From: Prorocentrum cordatum
Lineage: Eukaryota
Reading direction: 5' to 3'
DNA length: 64,000 bases
Assembly: GCA_963575745.1 (NCBI GenBank)
Contig: CAUYUJ010000211.1
Location: 1 to 64,000 of the forward strand
Below the pieces are notes generated by a model, which had not been told where the DNA came from, did no database searches, and saw only the letters and a list, made by a program, of their open reading frames with translations. The translations under genes and the position numbers were made by a program. Of the stretch, positions 7,573 to 59,984 are shown one piece after another. Every line of letters begins with the position of its first letter. Position 1 is the first letter of the stretch.

Positions 7573-7626
7573 GTGAGACACTGGTTCCCCCTTCTCCCTC
7601 ACCTCCTTATCTCCCGCAGGGTGGTC

Positions 7627-7629
<3 letters not shown>

Positions 7630-7660
<31 letters not shown>

Positions 7661-7941: not shown

Positions 7942-10480
7942 CTTCTCTCTCTCTCTCTCTCTCTCTCTCTTCCCCCCCCCTCCTCCTTCCCTCCCCCCTC
8001 CTTCCCTCCCTCCCCCCCTCCCCTTCCCCCGCCTCCTCCCTCCCTCCCTCTGGTCTCCCTCCCTCCATCCCCACCTCCCTCCCTCCTTCCTTTTCTTTTC
8101 CGTTAGTCGCTCCCTGCCCCCCGCCCCCCCCTCTTTCCCCCCCTCCCTCTCCTCTCTTTCTCCCCTCCCCCCTCCCCCTTTGCCCTCCCATCGCCCCCCT
8201 CTCCCCTTCCCCCCCTCCCCCCCCCTTCCCCTCCCTTCCCTTTCCCTCGCCCCCTTCTCTCCCCCCCCTTCCCCTCCCTTCCCCTCCCTGCCTTCCCCTC
8301 TCGCCCCCTCGCCTCCCGCCCCTTTCCCCCCTCCCCCCCTCGCCCCCCCCTCGGCCGACATGCTAACCTAACCCAACCTAACCTAACCTAGCCTTGCCTG
8401 GCCAGGCTCAGCCCAGCCTAACCCAATCAAGCCTAACTTAACCTATCTTACCTTGCCCTAACCGTACCAAGCCTAACCTAACCGAGCTTGACCTAACCTA
8501 ACGTAGCCAACTCAAACCTAACCTAACCTAGCCGAACCTAACCCAGACTAACCTAACCTAACCCAACCCTGCCACATTTAATCTAACCTAACCTAACCCA
8601 CGGACCCACCTACCCACAGTCCTGCCCGCCCACCTGCCTAGCTACCTACCTACCTACCCACCCACCGTCAAACCAACCAACCAACCAACCGACCAACTTA
8701 CCTACCAACCTGAACACCTACCTATCCACCTGTCTGCCTACCTACCTGCCTACTTGCCCACCTACCTACCTACATACCTCCCTACCCACCTACCTACCTA
8801 CTTACCCACCTGCCCACCTACCCACCCACCCACCTACCTACCTACCTACCTACCTGCCTGCCTACCTACCTACCTACCTACCTACATACCCACTACCTAC
8901 CTACCGACCGACCTATTCTTTTACCCTCCCTACCCACGCACCCACCCACCAACCCACCCACCCGCTCACCCACTTACCTACGTACCTACCGACCGACCTT
9001 CTCACCTACTTGCCTGCCTACCGACCGACCTGCCTACGTACCTACCTACCCACCTACCTACCTACCTGCTTACCTACCTACCTACCTACCTACCTTCTTA
9101 CCTACCTGCTTGCCTGCCGACCTACCGACCGACCGACCTACCTACCTTCCCATTATTCCCACGATTCCTATTTACTTATCCATTTACCGACCTGCCTACC
9201 TGCCTACCTACCTACTCACCCACCCACCTACCTGCGCACCTACCTACGTGCTTACCCATCGACATACCTACCCACCTACCCACCTACCCACCTACTTACC
9301 TACCTACCTACCTACCTACCTACCTACCTACTTACCTACCTACCGACCTATCTACCTACCTACCTACCTACATGTTGACCTACCTACCTACAGACTTACC
9401 CATCTACCCATTTACCCACCCACTCACCCGCCCACCTTCCCACCTACCCACCCACCCACCTACCCACGTACCCACCTACTCACCAACACACCTACCCAGC
9501 TAATTCACCTACCCACCTGCCCACCTTCTCGCTCAGCCACCTACCCACCTAGCGACCCACCCACCCACCCACGTACCTACCTGCCCACCTGCCTACCTAC
9601 CTGCCTACCGACCGGCCGACCGACCGACCAACCGTCCGACCGACCGACAACTTGCCTGCGTATCCACCTACCGCCTACCTGCCTTCCTGCTTGCCTACCT
9701 ACCTACCTACGTACTTACCCACTTACCTACCGGCCCACTCACCCACCCACCCACCCATCCACCCACCTGCCTGCCTGCCTGCCTGCCTGCCTGTCTACCT
9801 ACCTATCTACTTCTCTACTTTCCTACTTACCTACCTTCCCTCCCTCCCTTCTCTACGTTCCCTCCCTCCCTCGCTCCCTCCGTGCCTCCCTGCCTCCCTC
9901 CTTCCTTCCCTCCATCCCTCCTCTCCCTCCCCCTCGTCGTCGTCTCGTCGTCGTCGTCGTCCTCCTCCTCCTCTTCCTCCTCCTCCTTTTCCTTCTCCTC
10001 TCCTCTCCTCTCCTCTCCTCGTCCTCTCCTCTCCTCTCTCCTCTCCTCTCCTCTCCTCTCCTCTCCTCTCCTCTCCTCTCCTCTCCTTCTCTCTCCTCTC
10101 CTCTCCTCTCCTCTTCCTCTCCTCTCCTCTCCTCTCCTCTCCCTCCTCTCTCTCTCTCCTCCTCCTCTCCTCTCCTCCTCTCATCTCCTCTCCTCTCCTC
10201 CCCCTCCTCCTCTTCCTCTTCCTCCCTCCTCCTCCTCCTCCTCCTCCTCCTCCTCCTCCTCCTCCTCCTCCTCCTCCTCCTCCTCCGCCCCCTCGTCCTC
10301 GGCTCCTCGTCCTCTCCCTCCTCCTCCTCCTCCTCGTCCTCGTCCCCCTCCTCCTTCTCCTTCTCTCCTCCTCCTCCTCCTCCTCCTCCTTCTCTCCTCC
10401 TCCTCTCCTCCTCCTCCTCCTCTCCTCCTCCTCCTCCTCCTCCTCCTCCTCCTCCTCCTCCTCCTCTTCCTTTTCCTCCT
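7630..10480. repeat. Compound pyrimidine-rich, (CCTAA)n-like, (CCTA)n and (CCT)n simple repeats
   Basis: CCTAA-like at 8364-8600, CCTA at 8640-9830, CCT/CCTCT at 9960-10480. Confidence 0.9.
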
Positions 10481-45252: not shown

Positions 45253-46220
45253 AGAGGCGCTGAGTACGAGCGAAATATCAACATTGTCGGGTCAGGGTTT
45301 CTGGAGTCGGCCATTGTTTTGAGAGCTTCCGATCTTGCGGTTTTTGTCCGACTCGCGTCTGAGTCTTTGCCGCCATTTCCAGGTGCGTTTCCGTTTCGTG
45401 GTGCAAGAGAAAGACAGTCCAGAGCTGGCATTCCCCCCCCCCCTCCCTTCGAGGAGGCGCATGGATCCACGGAAGGCGCTGGAGTCCTGGACGTACCTCT
45501 GCACTCGGAGCTGCAGTTGCCTGCGACTACGCCGAGACCCGCCTCCGCAGTCGATGCAGGCTCGAATGGCAGCTCGAGCGGCACGATTACCGTGCCCTTG
45601 GACTCGAATCTTCAAGTGCCGCACGCAATCCGAAAGGCTGAGTCTGTTGAGCAGTTAGAGAGGAGTGTGCTAGAAGGTGTTGCAGTGGCGGACGTGCCTC
45701 TGGACTCGGAGCTGCAGTTGCCTGCGACTACGCCGAGACCTGCCTCCGCAGTCGATGCAGGCTCGAATGGCAGCTCGAGCGGCACGATTACCGTGCCCTT
45801 GGATTCGAATCTCCAACTGCCGCACGCAACCCGAATGGCTGGGTCTGCTGATCGGTCAGGGAGGAGTATGATGGTGGGTGCTGGAGTGGCGGACGTACCT
45901 CTGGACTCGGAGCTGAAGATGTTTACGACTACTCAAAAAGCCGCCTCTGCGGTTGATGCAGGCTCGACTGACAGTTCGAGCGGTACGATTACTGTGCCTT
46001 TAGATTCGAATCTTCAAGTGCCGCACGCAACTGCAAAGGCTGGGTCTGCTGATCGGCCAGAGAGCACTATTCCTGAACGTGCTGGAGTCGTGGACGTGCC
46101 TCTGAACTCGGAGCTGCAGCTGGCTACGACTGCTCAAAGAGCCGCTGCCGCGGTTGATGCGGGCTCGAGTGGCAGCTCGGGCGGCACGGTTGCCGTGCCC
46201 TTGGACTCGAACCTGCAGAC
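45253..46220 (+). CDS. Probable exon encoding ~3.7 copies of a 67-aa repeat (unknown function)
   Basis: Exact 201-bp period (45478, 45679, 45880, 46081), no indels, synonymous variation; motifs DVPLDSELQ / AVDAGS / TVPLDSNLQ. Confidence 0.6.
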
Positions 46221-46816
46221 GTCGCAGTCCGCGGACCACCTGGGAGAGACAATTTGCCCCAACCCGCACCGCTCCCGGCCAGGCCCGGCTCGGGCCCGGC
46301 ATCGTGCACGCGCACGCTCCCGGCCGCTCGCCGCCAGGGCGTGCGCGCGGACCTCGGGGGGGGGAGGGCCGGAGCCGGGACCAAGGAGTCGCCGTTTCGA
46401 CGCAGATCTCTGGCGGCACTTTTTCCCTCCCACGCCGACGTTTTCCCTTCGATCTCGGCCTCTGGGACACGTTCTCGGGCCCCGGGAACACCACGCATGG
46501 ACCCAGAGCGAGAAGCTGCTCCCGGGGGGCCGGGGTCGGAAGCTCCCTTGGCCGCACATTGCAGAGACCACGTCGTTGGGTCTCTGGGATGTGCACGCAG
46601 ACCCCCGACGTGTGGTTCTCTCACGACGCCAGCCTCCGAACCCTCGACCCTACCCTCAGGTCCCGCTGAACGTCGCGGGTCTGTTCGCTAACCGTCCCAG
46701 GCCTCGGAAGCAGCCCCCAACCCTCACGCCGAAGCTGCAGAAAGCATAGCGCCCGTCGCGGGTTCTTCCGCGACGCCCCAGGGGTCAGCTGGTCGTCTTT
46801 TGGCGGACGGAAAGCT

Positions 46817-46960
46817 GTATAAGGTAAACTTTTCCGTCGCTGGGGGCGCCTGTCCCAGGGCGGTTTGGGAAGTTCATACCCTGACGTGCCACAGTGGGGG
46901 TATACACTTCCAGCCGCCCTGGGGCAGGCGTCCCCGACGGCGAGAAAATCTACATTGCAC
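46817..46960. mobile_element. Imperfect palindrome with ~60-bp arms, MITE-like
   Basis: TTTTCCGTCGCTGGGGGCGCCTGTCCCAGGGCGGTTTGGGAAGT versus ACTTCCAGCCGCCCTGGGGCAGGCGTCCCCGACGGCGAGAAAA. Confidence 0.55.
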
Positions 46961-47104
46961 CCCTCTTCGCACGCGAAGCCGTTGCCGTCGCCGTCTTCGT
47001 CGTGCCCAGACCTCTGGCGTCGGGATTTTGTCACAGCGTTCACCCGTGGGGGAGAGGGCATAAGGGAAGGGAGGAACGGGCGGGGCGGGGAACGCCACGG
47101 AGGT

Positions 47105-47807
47105 GTGAGGAGGAGCAGGAGGATAATGAGAGAAGGGGACGAGGAGGAGGAGGAGGAGGAGGAGGAGGAGGAGGGAGGAGGAGGAGAGGAGGAGGAGAGG
47201 ATGAGGAGGGAGGGAGGAGGAGGAGGAGGAGGAGGAGGAGGAGGAGGAGGAGGAGAGGAGGAGGAGGAGGAGGAGGAGGAGGAGGAGGAGGAGAAGAGGG
47301 GAGGAGGAGGAGGAGGGAGGAGGAGGAGGAGGAGGGGACGTGTAGTGAGGAGGCGGAGGAGGAGGAGGAGGAGGAGGAGGAGGACGAGGAGGAGGAGGAG
47401 GAGGAGGAGGAGGAGGAGGAGGGAGAGGAGGAGGAGGTAGGAGGAGGAGGAAGGAGGAGGAAGAGGAGAGGAGGAGGAGGAGGAGGAGGAGGAAGAGGAG
47501 GCGGAGGCGGAGGAGGAGGCGCGCCGGGGCGGAGGCGGTAGGCGGAGGCGTAGGCGGGAGGCGGAGGGCGGAGGCGGAGGAGGAGGGGAGGAGGAGGAGG
47601 AGGAGGAGGAGGAGGAGGATGAGGACGATGATGATGAGATGATGATGATGATGATGCTGATGATGATGATGATGATGATGATGTGATGATGTGAGATGAT
47701 GATGATGATGATGATGGATGATGAGCTGATGCTGATGATATGATGAATGATGATGATGACGATGAGATGATGATGGTGATGATGATGATGAGGAGGAGAG
47801 GAGGACG

Positions 47808-47839
<32 letters not shown>

Positions 47840-47955
47840 GTGATGATGATGATGGATGAGGAGGAGGAGCGAGGACGGATGATGATGATGATGATGCTGA
47901 TGATGACGATGATGATGGATGATGATGTTGATGGATGATGATGATGATGTGCTTG

Positions 47956-47986
<31 letters not shown>

Positions 47987-48216
47987 GATGATGATGATGA
48001 GGAGGAGGAGGAGGAGGGAGGAGGAGGAGGAGGAGGAGGATTGGGGACGAGGCGGAGGAGGGGACGGCGGACGAGGAGGATTGATTGGCGGGGGACGAGG
48101 AGGATGAGGCGGGGACGAGGAGGAGAAGGAGGAAGAGGAGGAGGGGGAGGAGGAGGAGGAGGAGGAGGAGGAGGAGCAGGAGGAGGAGGAGGAGGAGGAG
48201 GAGGAGGAGGAGGAGG
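47105..48216. repeat. (GGA)n/(GAT)n tract, left flank of the retrotransposon
   Basis: Direct reading. Confidence 0.95.
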
Positions 48217-48391
48217 TGTTAACATGCACGCATGCGTGTGACAGGGGAGGAATAGTAACCCCGCTGCCTTTGGCTCAAGTGTTTAACGGTCGAAGTCACA
48301 TCGACCAGTTGCGCAGTTCGGGAGTATAAAGGTGACCTATCGTTATCATTGTCGCCAAGCTCCCGTGCAGAACCCTCCTCGGGGTTTTGCA
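48217..48391 (+). repeat. 5' LTR (175 bp)
   Basis: TGTTAACATG...GGGGTTTTGCA; differs from the 3' LTR by 2 substitutions and a 1-nt indel. Confidence 0.97.
48260..48279 (+). other. DinoSL-like motif in the 5' LTR
   Basis: CCCGCTGCCTTTGGCTCAAG versus DinoSL DCCGTAGCCATTTTGGCTCAAG. Confidence 0.7.
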
Positions 48392-48409
48392 TGGTAGCGG
48401 AGCGTGGTT
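48392..48409 (+). promoter_or_regulatory. Primer binding site, initiator tRNA-Met type
   Basis: TGGTAGCGGAGCGTGGTT directly abuts the LTR; its complement AACCACGCTCCGCTACCA resembles a tRNA-iMet 3' end. Confidence 0.85.
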
Positions 48410-48412
48410 GCC

Positions 48413-51028
48413 ATGGCAGCGGCAGCGGCAGCGGCAGCTGCGGCAAGACCTGGACAGGGCGACCCGCCAGTTAATCTCAATGTGCCGGCAGACAGAGATG
48501 CTTGGGTCAACATGGATCCGAATCGATTCAACGACCTGTGCGAGCAAGCATACGTGAACGGAGACTTCAGTTACGTTCAATCGGCGCTACTCGCAAACCA
48601 CTTTGGGCTCGCAACGTTCATTAACGAGCGAGTAGCACAGGACCGACGGGAGGTATCGAACGCCGAAGCATTCCAAATGTTACAGAGTGCCCACAAGACC
48701 AACAGTATGCTGTTAGCGATCACGAAGAGAAATGCTGCGCTCGAAAGAGATGCTCGCAGATTAGTGGAAAGAGTCACCGAGTTGGAGACCAACAGTGAAG
48801 TCCAAGAAAAGTTGATCGAAAGGTTCGGTCAGATCTCGGAAGCAATCAAAGGAGGAAGCGGAAACAAGCACGGGAGCAGTAAACCGATAAGCGAATATAA
48901 GGCGTTACAGGCGCTAAAGAACTTCAGTGGGGAAAGAGCGAAGTTCAGAGACTGGAACGACAAATTCTTGAACGCACTAGCCCAAGTGAAGCCGAGTTAC
49001 CGACCGGCACTGAAAATGCTAAACAAGAAGCTGGAGACGCTTGACGGAGTTGTACCAGAAGAGGACGACGATGACATCATACGCATAATGAACGGTCGAT
49101 TAACTGCAAGCGAGTACCTGAAGGCAAGTCAAGCCAAGCAAGCCGAGGACGACAACAAAGGCGAATATGAGTTTACCGAAGGAGACAAGACTCAGATGGA
49201 AGAAGACTTATGGTACATTCTGAACGAGAAACTTGAAGGTGCGGAGGCCAGAGGAAAATTAAAGGGACTGATGGATGGAGACGGAATCATGGCTTGGCAA
49301 AAGGTTTATCAATGGTACTCGGCAGTAACCGGAGCGACCTTGTCATCAAAAATGACGCATGCCATGAATCCTGAACCGCCCAAGAAGATCACCGACACCG
49401 TTACCCGACTTGAGGAATGGAGCGCATTGGCAGAAAATCTTGAGAAATATGGCAAAGATTACTCGCTGCCTCTTCCTTTCAAAGTCACCGCGCTCAGGGC
49501 CATAATGGTGCACGCGAATGACTGGTCTGACGAATGGCAGCAGGCATGTTGGCGAACGCCTGACGCGCTTAACATTGACTCATTTCAGAAATTGTACTCA
49601 AAGTGTGAAGACTGGGCGCGTAAAAAGAAACTTGACTCAGATTCAAAAAATAAGGATGCAATGGGCATTGGAAATATCAACGAGATGAGTCAAGGGTCCG
49701 AAAACGTTTGGGACCAAACAGGATGGGTTGACGAAGATGGAAACTGGTGGTCAGAGGATGGATCGTGGAATCACGGGTCCTGGGCCAATGAAAGTGACGG
49801 TGGAGAATATGAGGGAATTGACGCCGTAAACAAAGGTAAGGGTAAAGGAATGGGCCCCAGGTGTTACAATTGTGGAGGCATGGGCCATTTAGCCAGGAAC
49901 TGCACGAGACCCAAGCAGTTCACCAAAGGAGGTAAAGGTGGCAAAGGCGGAAAAGGCAAAGGTTACCGAGCCACTTACGGATCCTATGTGAAAGGTAAGA
50001 TCGGAGGCAAACATGGAGGTAAAGGAAGTAGCTCGTGGGGAGGAAGCTACGGAAGCCGAGGGAAATTTACCCCGCACAGTGAGCGTGAATGTTACAAGTG
50101 TGGCGGAAAAGGGCATATTGCCATTAACTGCCCGGGCTCCAAGAAGACCGCCAACGAAGTTGAGCAAGAGAAGCCTGCAGTAAACACCGAAACTGAACAA
50201 ACCACCTCGTTCGGTCAACCACAGCACGTTCTCAGCGTCGAGATGAAGGAAGCAATGAACGTGTCGCTAGACCAGACTGCGATCGTGGAGGTTAACGAGA
50301 AATGGGACCTGCCCTATTACGCCAGAAAGAAGACGGCGCGTGACAACGCGGTAAACATGAGAAGAATCTATCAGGAACACCAGTACGACGGAGACCGTTA
50401 CCATACTAGTCAGTGGGATCAAAGAATAAGTAAAAGCGTGAGGCAGGGAAAAAGTTGGCTGGCGAAATGCAAGGAAATTGGACTAATTGAGATGCGGGGA
50501 GGTGATCCAGAGATTAACGCAGTGCCGCCACCAAGTGCAACACATGAGACGATCGTGGTCACCGTGGACTCCGGCGCCTACAACACAGTGGGGCCCCCCA
50601 AAGTTGGCACTCATTTCCCCATTAAGCATGCGGACGCGTCAAAGCAGGGACGACACTACAGTGCGGCAAATGGAACCACGATAAAGAATTATGGTCAACG
50701 CGTGATCACAGGTAAAAATGAGCATGGGAACGCAGTCAGTATGCCAATTCAGGTGGCAGAGGTCAACAAAGTCCTAGGGTCGGTAAGAGAGATGGTAAAC
50801 GCTGGAAACAGAGTGGTGTTCGACAAGGATCCTAACGGGAAGTCCCTGAGCCACATCATGAACAAAGCGACTGGCAAGTTAACAGCCATCCATGAAAAGA
50901 ATGGCACGTTCCAGTTCAACATCACAGTGCCGAAGGGACCAGCGGAAGCCGTCAATCCCAGGAGTGAAGTGAACGTGACTGAGGGTTTTCCGCGGCCGGG
51001 AACCCTGGAGGCGGATCTGTTCTACTAA
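48413..51028 (+). CDS. gag: Gag-protease polyprotein (ORF1)
   Basis: ATG at 48413. Two CCHC knuckles (CYNCGGMGHLARNC 49862-49903; CYKCGGKGHIAINC 50090-50131) and aspartic protease VTVDSGA (DSG 50567-50575). Confidence 0.92.
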   Translation: MAAAAAAAAAARPGQGDPPVNLNVPADRDAWVNMDPNRFNDLCEQAYVNGDFSYVQSALLANHFGLATFINERVAQDRREVSNAEAFQMLQSAHKTNSMLLAITKRNAALERDARRLVERVTELETNSEVQEKLIERFGQISEAIKGGSGNKHGSSKPISEYKALQALKNFSGERAKFRDWNDKFLNALAQVKPSYRPALKMLNKKLETLDGVVPEEDDDDIIRIMNGRLTASEYLKASQAKQAEDDNKGEYEFTEGDKTQMEEDLWYILNEKLEGAEARGKLKGLMDGDGIMAWQKVYQWYSAVTGATLSSKMTHAMNPEPPKKITDTVTRLEEWSALAENLEKYGKDYSLPLPFKVTALRAIMVHANDWSDEWQQACWRTPDALNIDSFQKLYSKCEDWARKKKLDSDSKNKDAMGIGNINEMSQGSENVWDQTGWVDEDGNWWSEDGSWNHGSWANESDGGEYEGIDAVNKGKGKGMGPRCYNCGGMGHLARNCTRPKQFTKGGKGGKGGKGKGYRATYGSYVKGKIGGKHGGKGSSSWGGSYGSRGKFTPHSERECYKCGGKGHIAINCPGSKKTANEVEQEKPAVNTETEQTTSFGQPQHVLSVEMKEAMNVSLDQTAIVEVNEKWDLPYYARKKTARDNAVNMRRIYQEHQYDGDRYHTSQWDQRISKSVRQGKSWLAKCKEIGLIEMRGGDPEINAVPPPSATHETIVVTVDSGAYNTVGPPKVGTHFPIKHADASKQGRHYSAANGTTIKNYGQRVITGKNEHGNAVSMPIQVAEVNKVLGSVREMVNAGNRVVFDKDPNGKSLSHIMNKATGKLTAIHEKNGTFQFNITVPKGPAEAVNPRSEVNVTEGFPRPGTLEADLFY
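50983..50989 (+). promoter_or_regulatory. Candidate -1 ribosomal frameshift slippery site G GGT TTT
   Basis: X XXY YYZ in gag phase. The -1 frame opens right after TGA 50980-50982, and a GC-rich stem-loop follows (50990-51014). Confidence 0.7.
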
Positions 51029-51094
51029 GCCCCCCGTCACCCGTAAGACCAAGCGAAAACTTAAACGTCTTTAATACCGAAGGAGACGAAGGGA

Positions 51095-54000
51095 GTGAAA
51101 GTGGGGGCAGACGAAGGGAGTGAAAGTGGGGGCAACGACAGTGAGTTAAGTGATGTGGAAGATGTATTTGTGAGTGATGAGGCAGAGTTACCAAAGAAGA
51201 TTTACTGTGATATGAGGCCCTCAAAAGAGGAAGTTGAAGCGCATAACACGACGCATTTACCTTGCCGAAGCTGGTGCCCACATTGCGTCAGAGGAAAAGC
51301 TCGCAGACGCAATCACCGTAGACGCAAAAGAGAGGGGAACGGGAACGTGCCAGTGATTTCAATGGACTACATGTGGCTTAAAGGAAGAAAAGATGAAGGT
51401 GAAAGCAGCAGCAATGGCAACCCAATTTTGGTCATGCGTTGCAGAGAGACCAAATTGACTTGGAGCAGAGTGTTAATGAAAAAGGGAGTGGACTCGTACT
51501 CGGTAAAAGTAGGATGTGACATGATAAGTTTTACCGGATACAAGAAAGTGATACTCAAAAGTGATGGGGAAGCGGCAATCACAGCATTGGCCAATAGGAT
51601 TAAAGCTTCGTGTGATCTTGACATGGGAGTTGAGGTCAGCCCAGTGGGAGACTCAAAGGCCAACGGCGAAATTGAGAGAGCCGTTAGGACAGTGCAGGGC
51701 CAAGTCAGAACGTTTAAGAGCGCCCTGGACGCCAATTATAAAACTGAGTTTGGAGAAAGTCATCAGATAATACTTTGGCTGGTGAGTTATGCGTCCTCTT
51801 TGATTAACAAGTTCGCAATAGACACGGATGGGAAGACGGCTCATGAGAGGTGCAGGGGACGAAAATTTAACAAGCAAATCCCAGAGTTCGGTGAGTGTGT
51901 CATGTATTTAAAGACACCCGCGCACAAGGGTCGCGAGAAGCTCGAAATGAGATGGGAAAGTGGAGTGTTCCTGGGCATAAACGAGAAGAGTCAAGAGCTG
52001 ATTATTGGGACGCCTCATGGTGCAATCAAGGCGCACGAGTTTAAAAGAAAGGGAAGTGATGCTGAAAGATGGAATATTGCCGAGATTACCGAAATAAAGG
52101 GATTACCTTGGCAGCCTGACCCAAGCACAGCGGGAATGCAATTACAGTCTAGGATCATGGTGCCCATGGATCTACCAGAGCAAGAGTTAACTGCGCCTGA
52201 GACGAAGCCACTCATTGCAAGAGGAATTGCAGTTAAAAAGCATGAATACTTGAAAATGGGACCGACGCCAGGGTGTTACGGATGCAAATGCCTCGTGAGA
52301 GGAGACAAAGAGCACAAGCCGCGCAACGCCGATTGCAGGGCTCGAGTCATTGAATGGTTAAAGAAACAAGAGAGCCCGAACATCCAAGCAAGACTAGCGT
52401 CTGCCCAGTTAAGGCTTGAGAGCAAAAGTCGTGCACCAGAAAATCGTGAACAAGAATCAGAAAGTCAAACGAAGAAACTGAGGATCAACGTACCGCCTCC
52501 GCCGAGCGCCAAAGTTGAGGAACCTAAGGACGAGTGGGTAATAAAGGGGAACAAAGTTATATGTCAACACCGACGGCCGAGGAAAGAGTTAGCCTTCCCC
52601 ACCAATGGTGGGTGTCCAGTGGACTGGGACAAACTTAAGCCTAAAAGATATACCCACGCGATCATGATTGACGGCGGCAAGATACATGAGCACGAAGATG
52701 CTTTGTGTGGTAAAGATGGAGGCGATCAGACATGGGCTATGGGAAACCCCTTTAACGGTTACTGGACCGGATGGACCGAGTTCGAAGTAGAAGATGAAGA
52801 AATGAAGGATCCCCCGCGTGAACCCGTTAAACGAAAAGCAGAGGACGATCATGACGAAGAAGATCAACAGGCGACTCAGCATCGGCAACTTGACATGGAA
52901 CAAGATGAAGAAATGTCAGAGGTAAACGACATCAAGTTGGGACTCAACATGATGGGATTTGACTCTGAACTGGTTGAATGGTTGACAAGTGGTGAACTGA
53001 ACATCGTGCGCCAATTAAACGAGGTAAGGAGAGCCACCGGGCTCCATGGAGCATGCCAACACGAGACTCAGGCGCACGTAACAGAAGCGTATTCGCCGGT
53101 AAGAGTTACTGGAATGGCAGAAAAAATGGGATTGATACCAGGATTAGCAATGGATTTAACGACACGAGACCAACATGGTAACCCATGGGATTTTAATGTG
53201 CCGGCCATGCGTGTGAAAGCAAAAAAGATTGTCAAATCCAAAGCGGCTCTACTACTGGTGGTGAGCCCCATGTGCGCAGCCTTCAGCAGACTTCAATCGT
53301 TTAACTTTAAAAGATTGGGTGCCGACCGCGTGAAACAGATGTTAGATTACGGGATCAAACATTTGACGTTCGCAATGGAGCTCTGCGAAATTCAACGACG
53401 AAATGGGTTATACTTTCTGTTTGAACACCCTGCAGGAGCAACCAGCTGGGGCACTTCAACGGTGCAACGGCTGCTCAGAAACAAGGATGTCAAAGTATAC
53501 GATGGAGATTTGTGCTGTTACGACTTAAAGCAGGTGGTCAAAGGCGAAGAGATGTTTATTAAGAAACCTACCAAGTTCATGACGAACAGTTCAGCCATCG
53601 GACATGAGTTAAGTTGGAAATGTAAAGGGCAACATCGACACATAGAGTTAACTGGTGGTAGTAGGACGCACAGATCAGAGGTCTACCCAGATAAACTGTG
53701 TCGAGCGATACTGAAAGGACTTATAAAGCAAATGAAGATCGACGGCCGTCAAGGGGGTACATTTAAAGAAGAGGAAGTAGCGAACATGGAAGTCGAAGAA
53801 GAAGAACAAAGTGAGGCGCAGATTGGCGAGATTAACTGGGCGTGTGAACATGAGAACGAAGATAGGAAGCACAAGCACCAGTTAACGTGGACGAGGAGAG
53901 ACTATGGAACACGAAGATTAATGTTGCCGGGACCAAGTGGACCACAATGGAGTTCATGCATTAGGAGAATTACCGCCAACATAGACACCGGGAAAATTAT

Positions 54001-55876
54001 CGAGGACAGGCCCGTGAATGAGATCACAGGGAAAGAGAGAAGGAGGATGTTTAAGAAGGGGCCAGTTAACACCTCCACCACCTTTACGTATGAAGCTGTC
54101 GGCGAAATTGCTCCACACAAGTGGAAATGCTGTGCATGTGAACATGAGGGATGGCTCAAGACGCCTAGTACGTGTGAGGCGTGCGAAAGAACTGGAACAG
54201 TTAACCCTCTCCCGATGAACGCGATCAACGTTGTCCACAAAGAAAATGAAGAGATTATTCAAGCTTGGGATGATGTTACAGGAAACGAGCTCGACCCTAA
54301 ATTGACTGTGAGAGCGCGTCAAGAAGAAATGGAGCAATTCAGAAAACACAAAGTTTACGAGAAAGTGAAAGAGGAAGTATGCTGGCAAATTACGGGGAAG
54401 GCGCCCATCGGAACCAGATGGATAGACATCAACAAAGGAGATGAGTTAAGCCCAGACCACAGATCAAGGCTGGTAGCCCAGCAAGTTAAATACAACTCCA
54501 AAGAAAAGAACATATTCGCAGCTACACCTCCACTGGAAGCACAAAAACTGCTTTTCTCAATGGCAGTTACCGAGGGAGTTGGATTCACGAACGGTGAGCG
54601 TGAGAAAGGATTAAAGCTAGCATTCATTGACATCAAACGAGCTTACTTTTACGCTCCAGCAAAGAAAGACATATTTATCAGATTACCAGACGAAGACTAT
54701 GAACCAGGTATGTGCGGAAAGCTGTTAAAATCAATGTACGGAACCAGAGACGCTGCGAGTAACTGGGAGGACTGTTACATGGATTTTGCCAACGAAGCTG
54801 GGTTCAAGAGCGGAATTGCGTCACCATGTGTGTTCAAGCATGAGAGTCGAGCGTTATGGTTAACAGTTCATGGAGATGATTTCACGCTGTTAGGAGGTGA
54901 CCATGATCTCGACTGGTTTGAAAATAAAATTAAGGAGGAGTTTGAAGTGAAAGTGAGAGGACGACTTGGACCAGGGAAGGAGGACATGAAAGCGATCAGA
55001 ATTCTTAACAGGATTGTTGAATGGACCCAGGAAGGATTGAGGTATGAGGCAGATCAAAGGCATGCAGAGATAATTGTGAAAGAGCTTGAGCTAGAAGGAG
55101 TAAAGGTGAGGACTGAAGTGCCAGGTGAGCGAATTCCAGTTGAAGAGGGAGATGAGGAAGAGCTTTCGCCCAACATGACTAAAATATATCAAGCGTTGAC
55201 GGCCAGAGCAAATTACTTAGCTCAGGACAGGTCTGACATACAGTATTCGGTAAAGGAACTCGCTAGGACCATGTCAAAGCCCACGATGAGCTCTTGGAAA
55301 GGTTTAGTCAAGTTAGGAAAGTATTTGAAGTACCACAGCAGAAGCGGCTATGTGTATCAATATCAGGAGCAGCCCCAAGAGTTAACCATTTGGACTGACA
55401 CAGATTACGCAGGATGTAAGCGAACGAGGAAGTCTACGAGTGGGGGAGTAGTGATGTGGGGTAAACATCTCATAAAGTCCTGGAGCACGACTCAGAGTGT
55501 AATTGCGTTATCGTCAGGTGAAGCAGAGTATTACGGACTGGTGAAAGGAGGATCAGTGGGTTTAGGACTTCAGGCAGTATTGAGAGACTTTAACTTGGAA
55601 GTTGAGATTACAGTGAAGAGTGACGCCACAGCTGCGATTGCCATCGCAAGCAGACGAGGCTTGGGGAAGGTAAGACATATCGAGGTGTGTCAGTTGTGGT
55701 TACAGCAGAAAGTTAAGGAGGGAGTGATTCGTATTGTGAAAGTCGGGACACACGAGAATGCAGCAGATGCGTTGACCAAGTGTGTCAGTCGTGAAAGCAT
55801 GAGCACACATCTACGAAACACGAATCAATGTGCATTAACAGGCAGGCATGAGCTTGCACCAGCTACTGAATGTTGA
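51095..55876 (+). CDS. pol: Pol (ORF2): integrase, C5-DNA-methyltransferase-like insert, reverse transcriptase, RNase H
   Basis: HHCC HNTTH..CPHC (51242-51286); DDE MDY/SDG/GEIER; RT RSRLVA, DIKRAY, KSMYG, VHGDD (54866-54880); RNase H TDTDYAG, EAEY, SDATAA, NAADALTK. Confidence 0.95.
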   Translation: MKVGADEGSESGGNDSELSDVEDVFVSDEAELPKKIYCDMRPSKEEVEAHNTTHLPCRSWCPHCVRGKARRRNHRRRKREGNGNVPVISMDYMWLKGRKDEGESSSNGNPILVMRCRETKLTWSRVLMKKGVDSYSVKVGCDMISFTGYKKVILKSDGEAAITALANRIKASCDLDMGVEVSPVGDSKANGEIERAVRTVQGQVRTFKSALDANYKTEFGESHQIILWLVSYASSLINKFAIDTDGKTAHERCRGRKFNKQIPEFGECVMYLKTPAHKGREKLEMRWESGVFLGINEKSQELIIGTPHGAIKAHEFKRKGSDAERWNIAEITEIKGLPWQPDPSTAGMQLQSRIMVPMDLPEQELTAPETKPLIARGIAVKKHEYLKMGPTPGCYGCKCLVRGDKEHKPRNADCRARVIEWLKKQESPNIQARLASAQLRLESKSRAPENREQESESQTKKLRINVPPPPSAKVEEPKDEWVIKGNKVICQHRRPRKELAFPTNGGCPVDWDKLKPKRYTHAIMIDGGKIHEHEDALCGKDGGDQTWAMGNPFNGYWTGWTEFEVEDEEMKDPPREPVKRKAEDDHDEEDQQATQHRQLDMEQDEEMSEVNDIKLGLNMMGFDSELVEWLTSGELNIVRQLNEVRRATGLHGACQHETQAHVTEAYSPVRVTGMAEKMGLIPGLAMDLTTRDQHGNPWDFNVPAMRVKAKKIVKSKAALLLVVSPMCAAFSRLQSFNFKRLGADRVKQMLDYGIKHLTFAMELCEIQRRNGLYFLFEHPAGATSWGTSTVQRLLRNKDVKVYDGDLCCYDLKQVVKGEEMFIKKPTKFMTNSSAIGHELSWKCKGQHRHIELTGGSRTHRSEVYPDKLCRAILKGLIKQMKIDGRQGGTFKEEEVANMEVEEEEQSEAQIGEINWACEHENEDRKHKHQLTWTRRDYGTRRLMLPGPSGPQWSSCIRRITANIDTGKIIEDRPVNEITGKERRRMFKKGPVNTSTTFTYEAVGEIAPHKWKCCACEHEGWLKTPSTCEACERTGTVNPLPMNAINVVHKENEEIIQAWDDVTGNELDPKLTVRARQEEMEQFRKHKVYEKVKEEVCWQITGKAPIGTRWIDINKGDELSPDHRSRLVAQQVKYNSKEKNIFAATPPLEAQKLLFSMAVTEGVGFTNGEREKGLKLAFIDIKRAYFYAPAKKDIFIRLPDEDYEPGMCGKLLKSMYGTRDAASNWEDCYMDFANEAGFKSGIASPCVFKHESRALWLTVHGDDFTLLGGDHDLDWFENKIKEEFEVKVRGRLGPGKEDMKAIRILNRIVEWTQEGLRYEADQRHAEIIVKELELEGVKVRTEVPGERIPVEEGDEEELSPNMTKIYQALTARANYLAQDRSDIQYSVKELARTMSKPTMSSWKGLVKLGKYLKYHSRSGYVYQYQEQPQELTIWTDTDYAGCKRTRKSTSGGVVMWGKHLIKSWSTTQSVIALSSGEAEYYGLVKGGSVGLGLQAVLRDFNLEVEITVKSDATAAIAIASRRGLGKVRHIEVCQLWLQQKVKEGVIRIVKVGTHENAADALTKCVSRESMSTHLRNTNQCALTGRHELAPATEC
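53075..53725 (+). other. C5-cytosine methyltransferase-like domain within Pol
   Basis: Ordered motifs EAYSP (I-like), MDL/WDF (II/III-like), VSPMCAAFS (IV), FLFEHP (VI), KKPT (VIII-like), YPDKLCRAI (X-like). Confidence 0.7.
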
Positions 55877-55979
55877 CGTATCGAATGTTGATGTTCGCAG
55901 CTCATTTCTGTCAAGCAAACTGCAGCTATTAAAGGCCTTCTCCACCCATCACCTCTCACTCTTGAGCGTGAACGAGGGA

Positions 55980-58235
55980 ATGGCGGCTCCCCAGGTCAAC
56001 CTCACCATCAACGGCTCCATGGTCGACCAGAGCCCGGCTGGGGATGGACCGGTTACGCGTGAGAACCTCAACCGCCGTGTTGACGACATGGTGCACGTTG
56101 CCCACGCGTTTACCGTCACCCTCACTAACATGGCGATTAACTTCCACGGAGCCTACGACAAACACGTTGACGAGGTGCAAAGGGCCGCGGATGACATGGC
56201 GGCGAGGATCGAGGAGTTGACGCGGCAGAACGATGCGCTGATCCAGGACAGTGACGACGTCAACGAGAATCTCCAAAGGGCGCAGAAGGAGATTAACGAC
56301 CTGATGGCGACGATTACGGACCTGAACATTCAGAACCGCGACTCGGGGGTTAACACGGAGGAGAATGCAACCAAGTATAGGCGCATCAACGACAACATTG
56401 GTTACCTCCTGAACACCGCCAAGCGCCTTACCGATAACATCACGCCCCTGCAGGACTTCGAGGGTAAACGTGATGCGGCGCTACGCCTGTTGGTGGCAGT
56501 AACGGAGAGGCTGGAAGGATTACAGAGGTTCTTGCATGACCCGATCAACTCCCCGGTTACCAACATCCCGCAGGTTCCTCCGCCGTTGCCCGAGCAGCCC
56601 CCAACAGCAGTGGTCGCCAAGGCACCTCCCACTGCAGTCAACGCGACGGCCGGGGCCAGCCAGCCTCTAGCCCGAGCTGCCGCCGCATCGGGTGCACCCC
56701 CGGCTCAGGGCTTTACCGGCACCACGCCCAAGACCGGAGGATTCGGTCGATCCGTGTCGCCGAATAAGATCCCACAGTCAACGTCACCTCAACCTGTTTA
56801 CAAGAAGGCACCCAAGGCCATGCATGAGCGTAAGCGGGAATTGGAAGAGTTACTGCAGCTGGGAATGAAGATGGATGAAGATCGTGCACAGGGCAGTCAA
56901 CGTGACGAAGCAGCAAAAGGCCCTGCCCCGGTGGTGAAAGCGAGGGCGCCCAAGCCGCCTCCTCCAGGCCTTGGAGAGTCAGGTGCATCAAGCAGTGTTA
57001 GCGGCATGAATCCCCCGCCTCCGGTGCCCAAGAAGTTATCGACCCAGTATGTTCCTCCACCGCAGCCTCAAACCGTTAACCGTACGGACGAGCAGCTCGC
57101 GGCATACTCGCGGAACGTCGCCGGGGGCATGTACCGGCCACTGTATCATGTCAACGGCCGCATGCCTATGGTAAACGACAAGAGCGAGGACCACGACGTC
57201 AACTACAAGGTGGAGCCCGACCCCAGGGAGGTAGTCGCATTAACGATGAAGACGCGCGACAACTGGCGCAGGTTCGAAGGCAACTTCGTCGGACATGTGG
57301 CAAAAGAGGGGTTAACGACTCCAGGTGGTCGATCTATCCCGGGCAACACGGGGCGGGAACTCAACGACTACGATGAGGTGTTCGTCGACATTTACGGGCA
57401 GCACGCCTACGGCTTCCTTGGTTACTCTGTGTTAAAGGGCCCAAGCAGCTGGAGGTCTCAGTTGACGGAGAAGGAGCTGGAAAAGCACGACGAGTGGGTT
57501 GACGCGGTCGGGCACGTACAATCCCTGTTCGACGACGAGTACGTGCCGCCGATTCACGTTAACGATCTCCACCCAGTGTGGTTCGACGTTCACAGCTGCC
57601 CAGACACACAGGTCTACGTCAACAAGGCGCCAGAAATGAACGAGAAACAGCTTAACGGCCTTCTGCTAACGTGGGCCGGGATGCTGCCCCACGGCAACCC
57701 CGCCGTGGTCTCCGTTAAGCACCTGGTGGAAGACACTTACGGACCGCACGGCTACATCTCAACTGGGGTTACCGTGATCAGGTTTGCGACGCACGACCTC
57801 GCCAAGCTCTATTGTCGTTACATGAACGGGCTCCAGGTGTATTACCGCAACTACTTCATCGAGGATCTCGAGGTCAGGAGCGCCGAGGAGTTAAAGGGCA
57901 GCATCAACAAGCCCCCGGTTTACTGGCACCAGACCATCCTGGAGGTCGCTCTTAACGACCAGGGGTCCATGAGGGCGCTCTACCGTGACAACTGGCCTGC
58001 GGATCACATTACCGAGCGTAAAAGTGACCACCGCGAGAAGCTCTGTTGGTTTGGGTGGTTGCCGTGTGACGACTTTGCCAACTGGCTTACCGACCCGTAC
58101 TGGACTGTGAACCCATTTACCGGAGTTGCGGTCGAGGAGCACCTCCGCAACAATCCAGGTGGTAAACCTCTGCTGAAGGCTCCCCACGCCAGTTACTGGA
58201 GGGCCATTGGCAGGTACTTACCACAATATTGTTGA
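55980..58235 (+). CDS. ORF3: coiled coil, Pro/Ala-rich linker and RRM-like domain
   Basis: Long non-repetitive ORF inside the LTRs (track 55848..58235; a likely start is ATG 55980, MAAPQ). Heptad-like region 56150-56535; VYVNKAP / TGVTVIRF / YMNG at 57603-57840. Confidence 0.85.
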   Translation: MAAPQVNLTINGSMVDQSPAGDGPVTRENLNRRVDDMVHVAHAFTVTLTNMAINFHGAYDKHVDEVQRAADDMAARIEELTRQNDALIQDSDDVNENLQRAQKEINDLMATITDLNIQNRDSGVNTEENATKYRRINDNIGYLLNTAKRLTDNITPLQDFEGKRDAALRLLVAVTERLEGLQRFLHDPINSPVTNIPQVPPPLPEQPPTAVVAKAPPTAVNATAGASQPLARAAAASGAPPAQGFTGTTPKTGGFGRSVSPNKIPQSTSPQPVYKKAPKAMHERKRELEELLQLGMKMDEDRAQGSQRDEAAKGPAPVVKARAPKPPPPGLGESGASSSVSGMNPPPPVPKKLSTQYVPPPQPQTVNRTDEQLAAYSRNVAGGMYRPLYHVNGRMPMVNDKSEDHDVNYKVEPDPREVVALTMKTRDNWRRFEGNFVGHVAKEGLTTPGGRSIPGNTGRELNDYDEVFVDIYGQHAYGFLGYSVLKGPSSWRSQLTEKELEKHDEWVDAVGHVQSLFDDEYVPPIHVNDLHPVWFDVHSCPDTQVYVNKAPEMNEKQLNGLLLTWAGMLPHGNPAVVSVKHLVEDTYGPHGYISTGVTVIRFATHDLAKLYCRYMNGLQVYYRNYFIEDLEVRSAEELKGSINKPPVYWHQTILEVALNDQGSMRALYRDNWPADHITERKSDHREKLCWFGWLPCDDFANWLTDPYWTVNPFTGVAVEEHLRNNPGGKPLLKAPHASYWRAIGRYLPQYC

Positions 58236-58836
58236 CGGGTCCACCAAGAGCTTTGACGAGGGGTGCTGGTTGGACGACGAGGAGCGCATTAACGCGTACC
58301 TGGACACCGACTATTACAGCCCGACGCAGGCCCTTAACAGGGTGTCGTCCTATACGGCGGCCAGCGTGGGGCACCGTGGTTTACCGAAGTCCAGGGGCGC
58401 GCGTGCTCCGTCAGTGAGGCGCCCGCGCCGGTCGTAAACGGTGACAGGTGACCGGCATGCCTTTCTTTTACGCTCGCTCTCATCTCCCCTCTCAACCAGG
58501 CTTAACAATAGCATTGCAGTAGACTATTGAGCTGAATCTATTTGCGTGTGCATCTTTTATAGTTACCGCAGGTATTGGCGCATAACAAGCGAAAGCAATC
58601 AAAACCATGTAAATGCTAGCCTGCCGTGTGAACCTTAGATGCTACTTTTAAACTCGTAACTGATTGAATGTTTACTTGAGCTCACGTTGCATGTCTGAGA
58701 GACGTGGTGCTCGTGAACGTGGTTATGAGATATTTCGAATTCGGCAGTGTGACGATACTCACGCAGCCTGTCGCTTGATTTAACCTGTCTTTGTGTTTAC
58801 AAGGACCTCCCCGTCAGCCAATGCGGACTGGCGTCC

Positions 58837-58845
58837 GAGGGGGGG
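58837..58845 (+). promoter_or_regulatory. Polypurine tract
   Basis: GAGGGGGGG immediately before the 3' LTR. Confidence 0.85.
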
Positions 58846-59021
58846 TGTTAACATGCAAGCATGCGTGTGACAGGGGAGGCATAGTAACCCCGCTGCCTTT
58901 TGGCTCAAGTGTTTAACGGTCGAAGTCACATCGACCAGTTGCGCAGTTCGGGAGTATAAAGGTGACCTATCGTTATCATTGTCGCCAAGCTCCCGTGCAG
59001 AACCCTCCTCGGGGTTTTGCA
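58846..59021 (+). repeat. 3' LTR (176 bp), with DinoSL-like motif at 58889-58909
   Basis: Direct repeat of 48217-48391; contains CCCGCTGCCTTTTGGCTCAAG. Confidence 0.97.
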
Positions 59022-59796
59022 GGAGGAGGAGGAGGAGGAGGAAGAGGGGGAGGAGGAGGATAATGAGAGAAGGGGACGAGGAGGAGGAGGAGGAGTAGGA
59101 GGAGGAGGAGGAGGAGGAGAGGAGGAGGAGGAGGAGGAGGAGGAGGAGGAGGAGGAGGAGGAGGAGGAGGAGGAGGGAGGAGGAGAGGAGGAAGGAGGAG
59201 GAGGAGGAGGAGGAGGAGGAGGAGGAGGAGGAGGAGGAGGAGGAGGATGAGGAGGAGGAGGAGGAGGAGGAGAGGAGAGGAGGAGGAGGAGGAGGAGAGG
59301 AGGAGGAGGAGGAGGAGGAGGAGGAGGAAGAGGAGGAGGAGGAGGAGGAGGAGGAGGAAGGAGGAGGAGGAGGGGAGGAGGAGGAGGAGGAGGAGGAGGA
59401 GAGGGGAGGAAAGGAGGAAGGAGGAGGAGGAGGAGGAGAGGAGGAGGAGGAAGGAGGAGGAGGAGGAGGAGGAGGAGGAGATGAGGAGGAGGAGGAGAGG
59501 GGAGGAGAAGAGGAGGAGGAGGAGGAGGAGGAGGGAGGAGAGGAGGAGGAGGAGGGCGGAGGAGGAGGAGGAGGAGGAGGAGGAGGAGGAGGAGGGGAGA
59601 GGAGGGGGAGGAGGAGGAGGGAGGAGGAGGAGAGGAGGAGGAGGGGACGACGAGGAGGAGGAGGGGACGAGGAGGAGGCGGGGGAGGAGGAGGAGGAGGA
59701 GGAGGAGGAGGAGGGAGGGAGGAGGAGGAGGAGGAGGAGGAGGAGGAGGAGAGAAAGGACGAGGCGACCGAGGGAGGAGGTGGATGAGGAGGAGGA

Positions 59797-59828
<32 letters not shown>

Positions 59829-59840
59829 GAGGAGGAGGGG
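59022..59840. repeat. (GGA)n tract, right flank
   Basis: Direct reading. Confidence 0.95.
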
Positions 59841-59984
59841 TTCTGGACCCCTCCCCCCGGACCGTCGTTTCGGCCCGATTCGTTTTTTCGACGGTCCTGG
59901 GGAGCCGCGGGGCACCCCAGAGGTTTGATCACGGCCCGCGGCCCCTGGCGCCAGGAGACTGGCGCTGCCGCCGCCGCTGCCGCC

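Follow-up and report, generated by a model that had tools for sequence, protein, structure and literature searches.

The 64,000-nucleotide stretch of Prorocentrum cordatum DNA analysed here (contig CAUYUJ010000211.1, positions 1 to 64,000 of the forward strand; hereafter the window) carries in its last quarter, at 48217-59021, a complete 10.8-kb long terminal repeat (LTR) retrotransposon, and the present work concerns the third open reading frame (ORF) of that element, ORF3. The sense-strand ORFs between the LTRs follow one another in the order gag, pol, ORF3 (Table 1). The element is of the Ty1/copia kind: its LTRs begin with TG and end with CA, its Gag bears zinc knuckles, and its reverse transcriptase is of the copia type (RVT_2 at amino acids (aa) 1101-1288 of pol, Pfam E 2.3e-13). 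The order integrase before reverse transcriptase, also as expected of this kind, rests on a weak SH3_retrovirus match at pol aa 268-300 (19.4 bits, cut-off 27), upstream of RVT_2. The two LTRs, 175 and 176 nt long, are distinguished by 2 substitutions and 1 one-base indel and, since they are nearly identical, the insertion is recent. GGA-type microsatellite flanks both LTRs; a 5-bp target duplication, GGAGG, is possible and not provable within such a repeat. No second copy was found inside the window by tblastn.

Table 1 Features of the retrotransposon and of its third ORF. Positions are those of the window; aa of ORF3 are counted from the 55848 start throughout.
Feature	Position	Strand	Remarks
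5' LTR	48217-48391	+	175 nt, TG...CA, direct repeat of 58846-59021
gag(-protease) ORF	48404-51028	+	874 aa; two zf-CCHC knuckles (Pfam E 1.7e-11); D-S-G motif near the C-terminus
pol ORF	51095-55876	+	1593 aa; integrase region, unexplained insert, RVT_2 reverse transcriptase, RNase H region
ORF3, longest reading	55848-58235	+	795 aa; between the pol stop (55876) and the purine tract/3' LTR (58836-59021)
Polypyrimidine tract with AG	55936-55966	+	24 of 28 nt are C/T (55936-55963), AG at 55965-55966, 14 nt before the ATG; candidate 3' splice or trans-splice acceptor
ORF3 from the start supported by relatives	55980-58235	+	Met45 position
Heptad-rich helical region	56052-56540	+	aa 69-231, proline-free; from the heptad score
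Pro/Ala/Gly/Ser-rich linker	56544-57131	+	aa 233-428; from composition
Conserved C-terminal domain	57132-58232	+	aa 429-795; from invariant columns and the AlphaFold model
Divergent RRM core (predicted)	57579-57977	+	aa 578-710; beta1/RNP2 57609-57623, RNP1-like strand 57762-57785
Frameshift site of the window copy	58209-58214	+	Frame change between RAIG and the tail; variant contigs lack 4 letters or 1 letter
C-terminal tail	58222-58437	+	71 codons and stop, +1 frame; aligns with the tails of P0001-P0004
Second polypyrimidine tract	58460-58493	+	Directly after the tail stop
Purine tract (polypurine tract, PPT)	58836-58845	+	Abuts the 3' LTR; read from the LTR alignment
3' LTR	58846-59021	+	176 nt

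To begin with, a word-seeded search returned four close relatives of the ORF3 protein (P0001-P0004, 50-66% identity), three of them full-length (841-863 aa) and one consisting of the C-terminal domain alone. The ORF in the env position that a preliminary description of this DNA had placed at 55848-58235 exists as described; both of its ends, however, require amendment. Because three close relatives begin, in the alignment, at the position of Met45, translation probably starts at 55980 rather than at 55848. At the other end, all four close relatives carry approximately 70 extra C-terminal residues, which in the window lie out of frame (+1); judged by this alignment, the window copy is cut short by a frameshift, and its 71-codon tail is cut off. 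The tail is acidic and Cys-bearing at first and then basic, with 8 K/R among its final 25 residues, and its GC content at third codon positions (GC3) is 0.80. Hundreds of variant contigs of the ORF3 stretch were found in four sequencing runs from four studies (DNA or unclassified contigs); no RNA run was listed among those that contain it. In three of the four, some contigs have the tail in frame, with 4 letters or 1 letter absent at 58209-58213; in the fourth, one contig lacks 3 letters at 58214 and the tail stays out of frame. Contigs with deletions at 58209-58214 are a minority by depth at that place in each of the four runs; therefore, either the frameshifted form is itself common, or the assembly is imprecise there.

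The alignment of relatives shows a weakly conserved head, a linker rich in indels and a C-terminal domain dense in invariant columns from aa 429 onwards. An HMMER scan with a two-sequence profile of that domain gave 85 cluster representatives at E <= 1e-3 (36 at <= 1e-10, 10 at <= 1e-30), most of which are fragments. A distant full-length relative, P0008, was traced to a 10,523-nt metagenome contig, L001. Repeats lie at the ends of this contig, and its three ORFs (855, 1563 and 884 aa) follow the order seen in the window element. Between the two elements, pol is 64% identical over its whole length, gag 49% and the C-terminal domain of ORF3 34%, while the N-terminal halves of ORF3 could not be aligned by BLAST. 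By this comparison ORF3 is the fastest-evolving gene of the element, yet its position has been kept. Among the best-supported 40 of 283 variant places in the four runs, 22 lie in ORF3, and 13 of these are synonymous compared with a random expectation of 23-34% (p = 0.012), which lends modest support to purifying selection. A search for ORF3 fused to pol turned up only the three known full-length ORF3 proteins, and no further contigs with ORF3 appeared in a metagenome scan with the alignment of close relatives or in viral-contig scans with the same alignment and with P0009. The preliminary description had named conservation in other copies, together with an RRM fold, as that on which its reading stood or fell; the cluster representatives, the variant contigs and the sister element L001 all attest to such conservation. 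Judged by these comparisons, ORF3 is a genuine gene, conserved as the third one in a group of related Ty1/copia elements 10.5-10.8 kb long, and this lineage probably belongs to dinoflagellates.

It had also been pointed out that ORF3 is visibly richer in C/G than gag-pol, and this is borne out by its GC content of 0.58, compared with 0.51 in gag and 0.47 in pol. The corresponding GC3 values are 0.72, 0.56 and 0.49, and those of L001 fall in the same order, ORF3 > gag > pol (0.71, 0.64 and 0.52). From the comparison of the two elements, the GC3 order is a stable property of the lineage and not the mark of a recent capture; the high value of ORF3 may come from codons adapted to a protein that is required in large amounts. 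One of the origins suggested earlier for ORF3, capture of a host gene, is unlikely in its recent form, because L001, with a pol only 64% identical, has the same gene with the same elevated GC3. An ancient capture is possible.

Together with the tail, the C-terminal domain spans about 440 aa and is composed of a helical sub-domain, a predicted, divergent RRM core (aa 578-710), a further sub-domain of about 85 aa and the 71-aa basic tail. With an alignment of 88 sequences, from which P0067 (eight short matches) was omitted, AlphaFold produced a model of the C-terminal domain with a mean predicted local distance difference test score (pLDDT) of 79.2 and a predicted template modelling score (pTM) of 0.83; the means of ten-residue blocks over the core were 75-98. 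A model obtained with two sequences had a pLDDT of 33 and was discarded. In the accepted model, where residue 1 corresponds to ORF3 aa 421, the order of elements is strand 168-172, helix 179-187, a long hairpin 200-212/215-226, helix 229-239, strand 243-249 and strand 271-277, and the RRM is formed by residues 168-249 together with strand 271-277.

The model was compared with 48,161 representative chains using VIA-align, which returned 50 rows with Z of 5.6-6.6 (5.6-6.7 when the re-ranked Foldseek list is included); values of Z < 8 can reflect a common arrangement, so that sequence evidence matters here, and the fold call rests on agreement across rows and on the sequence register. An RRM-type domain is named in 28 of the 50 rows. 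The other 22 are spliceosomal, ribosomal or other ribonucleoprotein chains, or proteins such as raver1, Hsh49p and Nop15, whose titles name no domain, and a fold other than RRM is named in none of the 50. For instance, 9dwu_C ('CoREST complex bound to U2AF2') was matched by VIA-align with Z 6.5 and a root-mean-square deviation (rmsd) of 1.8 Å over 79 of 80 residues, and 5w0h (U2AF65 RRM2), from the re-ranked Foldseek list, with Z 6.5 and an rmsd of 1.7 Å, also over 79 of 80. The top PDB rows of Foldseek were HuD, HuR, CUGBP1, U2AF65 and similar proteins (best E 2.5e-3). In the search of viral structures (BFVD), Foldseek gave no clear match, only a small number of weak hits to RRM proteins of giant viruses, with E 0.03 at best. 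Sequence comparison pointed the same way: the family profile of 88 sequences had 16 matches among PDB sequences at E <= 10, of which 14 are RRM proteins, among them Sex-lethal (0.0061), HuR (0.0062) and hnRNP M (0.012), the displayed alignments being in register over RNP2, RNP1 and helix 2, and a two-sequence profile had 0 matches in the same set. In the protein atlas, the whole C-terminal domain scored 0.83 with RRM clusters and 0.88 with a nameless cluster, all below 0.9 and thus a lead only. Residues 25-160 of the domain found no usable match there, and neither VIA-align nor the protein atlas gave leads for the parts flanking the RRM core. No Pfam family was found in the C-terminal domain in any of the 88 aligned members, and no RRM model at E <= 0.01. 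Although no single line is strong, the combined evidence makes it very likely that the C-terminal domain of ORF3 contains an RRM core, in keeping with the RRM-like fold expected beforehand for the C-terminal half.

The stretch in which resemblance to RNP2, RNP1 and helix 2 of an RRM had been pointed out corresponds to aa 587-664. In the consensus RRM, the RNP2 hexamer has an aromatic residue at position 2, and the RNP1 octamer, located on strand 3, has aromatic residues at positions 3 and 5. The RNP2 of ORF3 reads V-Y-[VI]-x-x-L-P across the family (Tyr in 34 of 47 sequences, V in 34 of 47, P in 44 of 49) and aligns with the RNP2 of Sex-lethal. RNP1 keeps Gly at position 2 (43/44), Arg at position 7 (35/42) and Phe at position 8 (36/42). 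RNP2 is canonical, and all three motifs are in register; RNP1 is without its two aromatic residues. Since RNP1 lacks these two residues, the ORF3 domain is, from its motifs, a non-canonical RRM, and RNA binding by it is plausible, not assured. With canonical RRM_1 domains (Sex-lethal, HuR, U2AF65 RRM2) it has the predicted fold in common, and its RNP2, RNP1 and helix 2 line up with theirs; it differs from them in the missing aromatics at positions 3 and 5 of RNP1, in a long beta2-beta3 hairpin and in scores below the Pfam threshold.

The N-terminal part of ORF3 was examined with a home-made score of hydrophobicity at heptad positions a and d. In the proline-free region at aa 69-231, 75 of 140 scored windows reach the required value, and none of 500 shuffles matched that number, so the heptad-like N-terminal region reported earlier is confirmed. 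Equivalent stretches are present in P0001, P0003 and P0008. Pfam coiled-coil families gave only sub-threshold matches over aa 85-215, and prediction of a three-copy complex of aa 66-232 returned a score of 0.00, a run made without controls in which the single-chain fold was itself uncertain and which counts neither for nor against oligomerisation. The linker that follows (196 residues) contains 35 Pro, 26 Ala, 16 Gly, 15 Ser and 13 Lys; the Pro/Ala/Lys linker of the preliminary description is therefore indeed rich in Pro and Ala, but Lys is not prominent (13/196). This disordered, Pro-rich linker is poorly conserved among relatives and has many indels in the alignment.

No transmembrane segment was detected in ORF3 by Kyte-Doolittle hydropathy, the top 19-residue mean being 1.06 and lying within the RRM core; the same measure found none in four ORF3 relatives. 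No signal peptide was seen either, and the N-terminus from Met45 is polar. An Env reading of ORF3 is ruled out by the lack of any hydrophobic segment or signal peptide, as had been concluded earlier from the lack of a visible transmembrane stretch.

The signals through which ORF3 might be expressed lie in the approximately 100 nt between the pol stop and the ATG at 55980. The + strand of the element has two polypyrimidine tracts in all, at 55936 and 58460, and L001 has tracts at matching places (7607-7640, before its ORF3 ATG, and 10152-10191, just past its ORF3 stop). By its sequence, the tract with AG before ORF3 resembles a 3' splice site from which a subgenomic mRNA could arise. In addition, a relic of the 22-nt dinoflagellate spliced leader (SL; sequence from PMC5585692) is present in both LTRs (48261-48279 and 58890-58909). 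In the 3' LTR, 18 of 21 aligned letters match the leader, with two mismatches and one gap, and the last 11 relic letters also occur in the otherwise dissimilar LTRs of L001 (99-109 and 10459-10469). Such relics suggest that a leader copied by reverse transcription now heads the transcribed R region and has turned into a working part of the LTR. They also argue for a dinoflagellate host and for trans-splicing of the element RNA: this RNA would have met the trans-splicing machinery, and trans-splicing at the ORF3 acceptor would therefore be the simplest route to an ORF3 mRNA. Contig loose ends at 55882 and 55935 were considered as leader junctions and rejected, being diverged copies of the pol end.

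Three known systems were compared with the ORF3 product, ORF3p. LINE-1 ORF1p, a retrotransposon RNA chaperone, combines a variable coiled coil with a conserved non-canonical RRM and a C-terminal domain (PMC6428221, excerpt). The likeness to it lies in the origin of both proteins in retrotransposons, in a variable N-terminal half that keeps only its heptad character, in a conserved C-terminal half built around an RRM with non-canonical RNP motifs and a further domain, and in the lack of a membrane anchor (same excerpt of PMC6428221). ORF3 thus has the ORF1p-like order of a coiled coil (in ORF3 a putative one, the heptad-rich region) before an RRM and a C-terminal domain, and the resemblance is one of architecture only. 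No ORF1p family was found in Pfam at E <= 0.1 over the whole of ORF3; ORF1p is the first ORF of a non-LTR element, whereas ORF3 is the third, after pol, in an LTR element with a zinc-knuckle Gag; and ORF3 has a 196-aa Pro-rich linker, with its RRM embedded in a domain of about 440 aa. The rows listed by Foldseek and VIA-align include no structure of LINE-1 ORF1p, which is not evidence either way.

The second system, Cer1, is a Ty3/gypsy-type element. In C. elegans, Cer1 encodes CERV, an extra LTR-element protein made from a spliced mRNA that serves the export of genomic RNA (PMC10309623, excerpt). As far as that excerpt goes, CERV resembles ORF3p in being encoded apart from gag and pol, in having a spliced mRNA (for ORF3 a predicted one, through the candidate acceptor) and in acting on genomic RNA, as ORF3p might; it is not described there as an RRM protein, and the likeness is one of description, without sequence comparison. 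By analogy, LINE-1 ORF1p and CERV are the closest functional models for ORF3p, which is a member of neither family. Finally, env-like third ORFs exist in copia elements of the Sirevirus type, as do 'additional ORFs' of LTR retrotransposons. Such ORFs likewise lie between pol and the PPT/3' LTR and are lineage-specific and fast-evolving; ORF3 differs from them by having neither transmembrane segment nor signal peptide and by its recognisable RRM core.

From these results, a hypothesis may be put forward in which ORF3p is an accessory ribonucleoprotein factor of the element. It joins three propositions, an mRNA of its own, self-association and RNA binding, and we consider their conjunction about evenly poised between right and wrong. 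ORF3p would be made from a subgenomic mRNA through splicing, most simply through SL trans-splicing at the polypyrimidine/AG site. The heptad head would bring several ORF3p copies together, and the RRM-centred domain with the basic tail would bind nucleic acid in single-stranded form, for which the RNA of the element itself is the likeliest candidate. The role of ORF3p could then be the packaging, chaperoning or export of genomic RNA, alongside the two-knuckle Gag.

Several points weigh against this hypothesis. No structural match reached Z 8 or a Foldseek E of 1e-3, and no sequence match reached E 1e-3; Pfam RRM models appeared at E <= 10 in 2 of 18 segments, both below their cut-offs (RRM_MARF1, 11.8 bits with a cut-off of 27; RRM_1, 13 bits with a cut-off of 20.7, in the L001 segment). 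Position 3 of RNP1 is mostly T/V/A, and position 5 mostly A/V, with Phe in 2 of 45 sequences; RRMs without the base-stacking aromatics of RNP1 often bind proteins. Gag already has nucleic-acid-binding zinc knuckles, which leaves no evident need for a further RNA-binding protein. Moreover, P0001-P0004 could be free-standing genes, and ORF3 evolves faster than gag and pol.

The hypothesis may be extended to a joint picture, which as a whole is tentative and rather doubtful: that this copia lineage evolved, independently of LINE-1, a chaperone composed of a coiled coil and a non-canonical RRM, that its RNA undergoes two trans-splices, and that ORF3p binds the element RNA. A trans-splice near the LTR would yield genomic RNA with a leader-headed R region, hence the relic in both LTRs, and a second one, at the polypyrimidine/AG site before ORF3, would produce the shorter, subgenomic mRNA. 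The protein made from it would then either regulate the proportions of these two RNAs or serve to package the genomic RNA.

The main rival to a ribonucleoprotein role is that the domain is a protein-binding or otherwise non-canonical RRM, such as a U2AF homology motif (UHM) or a pseudo-RRM, and that ORF3p is an adaptor which recruits or blocks a host factor, acting as a silencing suppressor or as an integration tether to GGA microsatellites; we hold it to be unlikely, yet a serious contender. It would account for the absence of both canonical RNP1 aromatics across the family, for the embedding of the RRM in a much larger conserved domain and for the pace of ORF3 evolution, which exceeds that of gag and pol, as is often seen in proteins engaged in host conflict. 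Against it stand the conservation of Tyr in RNP2 and of Gly and the Arg-Phe pair in RNP1, the basic tail and the fact that no partner for such an adaptor is known. As for the tether, GGA repeats border the window copy, L001 and a loose end of run X6, but in LTR elements it is usually the integrase that determines where insertion takes place.

It is improbable that ORF3p is instead a particle component, or a cell-to-cell or nuclear-entry factor replacing Env or movement proteins without a membrane anchor, with the RRM as a mere scaffold. The env position, the long helical head with its long linker, and a high GC3 that, as in gag, suggests abundant expression would all suit such a protein, which should then be reconciled with the lack of a signal peptide or transmembrane segment and of any match to viral structural proteins in BFVD.

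We consider it very improbable that ORF3 is a passenger, that is, a captured host gene useless to the element, or that P0001-P0004 are the host's own genes. Such a view draws on the GC3 of ORF3, well above that of pol, on the short contigs (3.4-4.4 kb) of the closest relatives, and on the 120 pol relatives listed, in which the L001 type is the sole full-length pol match and no pol is closer than that of L001, even though closer ORF3 relatives exist. It is contradicted by the same place and the same GC3 gradient in an element with a pol 64% identical, by ORFs that are intact and equal in length in many cluster members, and by the synonymous excess among copies. That ORF3 is a chance open frame or an assembly artefact, as the frameshift near the end of the window copy could hint, is refuted in practice by the four close relatives, by the 85 clusters of related proteins and by the shared gene order in L001; the confident fold also speaks against it.

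Extra ORFs are common in LTR retrotransposons, and very few of them have a known fold or role. With a confident predicted fold, at least 85 sequence clusters lacking a Pfam model and conserved synteny, ORF3 is a concrete candidate for an RNA-handling accessory gene; if ORF3p does bind RNA, a very different class of retroelements would have arrived by convergence at a protein comparable to LINE-1 ORF1p. It also bears on how copia elements live with obligatory SL trans-splicing. A full-text search, supplements aside, found no literature on a copia ORF3 with an RRM. Copia elements are the most abundant retrotransposons of Symbiodinium according to an excerpt of PMC5890265, and some are activated by heat (PMC5776459); the main text of the latter report, supplements aside, describes its copia elements without a third ORF.

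Several observations were made beside ORF3. A region of about 600 aa in pol, between the integrase part and the reverse transcriptase (aa ~440-1060, window ~52400-54280), is conserved with L001, strongly so at aa ~640-880, where several Cys/His motifs occur. Among the 120 pol relatives listed, this insert is covered by the L001 type alone. It contains no Pfam family at E <= 1 and has no meaningful match among PDB sequences; a likeness of aa ~620-900 to a cytosine methyltransferase was considered and dropped, as neither Pfam (E <= 1) nor PDB sequences supported it. Symbiodinium copia elements are without a DNA methyltransferase (DNMT) domain in the excerpt of PMC5890265.

GGA/GAG microsatellite lies at the LTR edge in the window (46900-48216 and 59022-59900), in L001 (1-39) and at the loose end of run X6 (58844), and such repeats may be preferred insertion sites of this copia lineage. 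Upstream of the element, at 45319-46749 (+), there is a GC-rich ORF of 476 aa, which may be a host gene or belong to a further repeat family; within it, a 201-nt unit encoding a Ser/Pro/Ala-rich repeat occurs three times in tandem (45475-46176), and the copies are 79-85% identical. The window further contains 100 N, GGA/GAT arrays at 46.9-48.2 kb and 59.0-60.9 kb, CA/CATA-type arrays at 62.1-62.6 kb and an array of a 12-nt unit at 63.8-64.0 kb.

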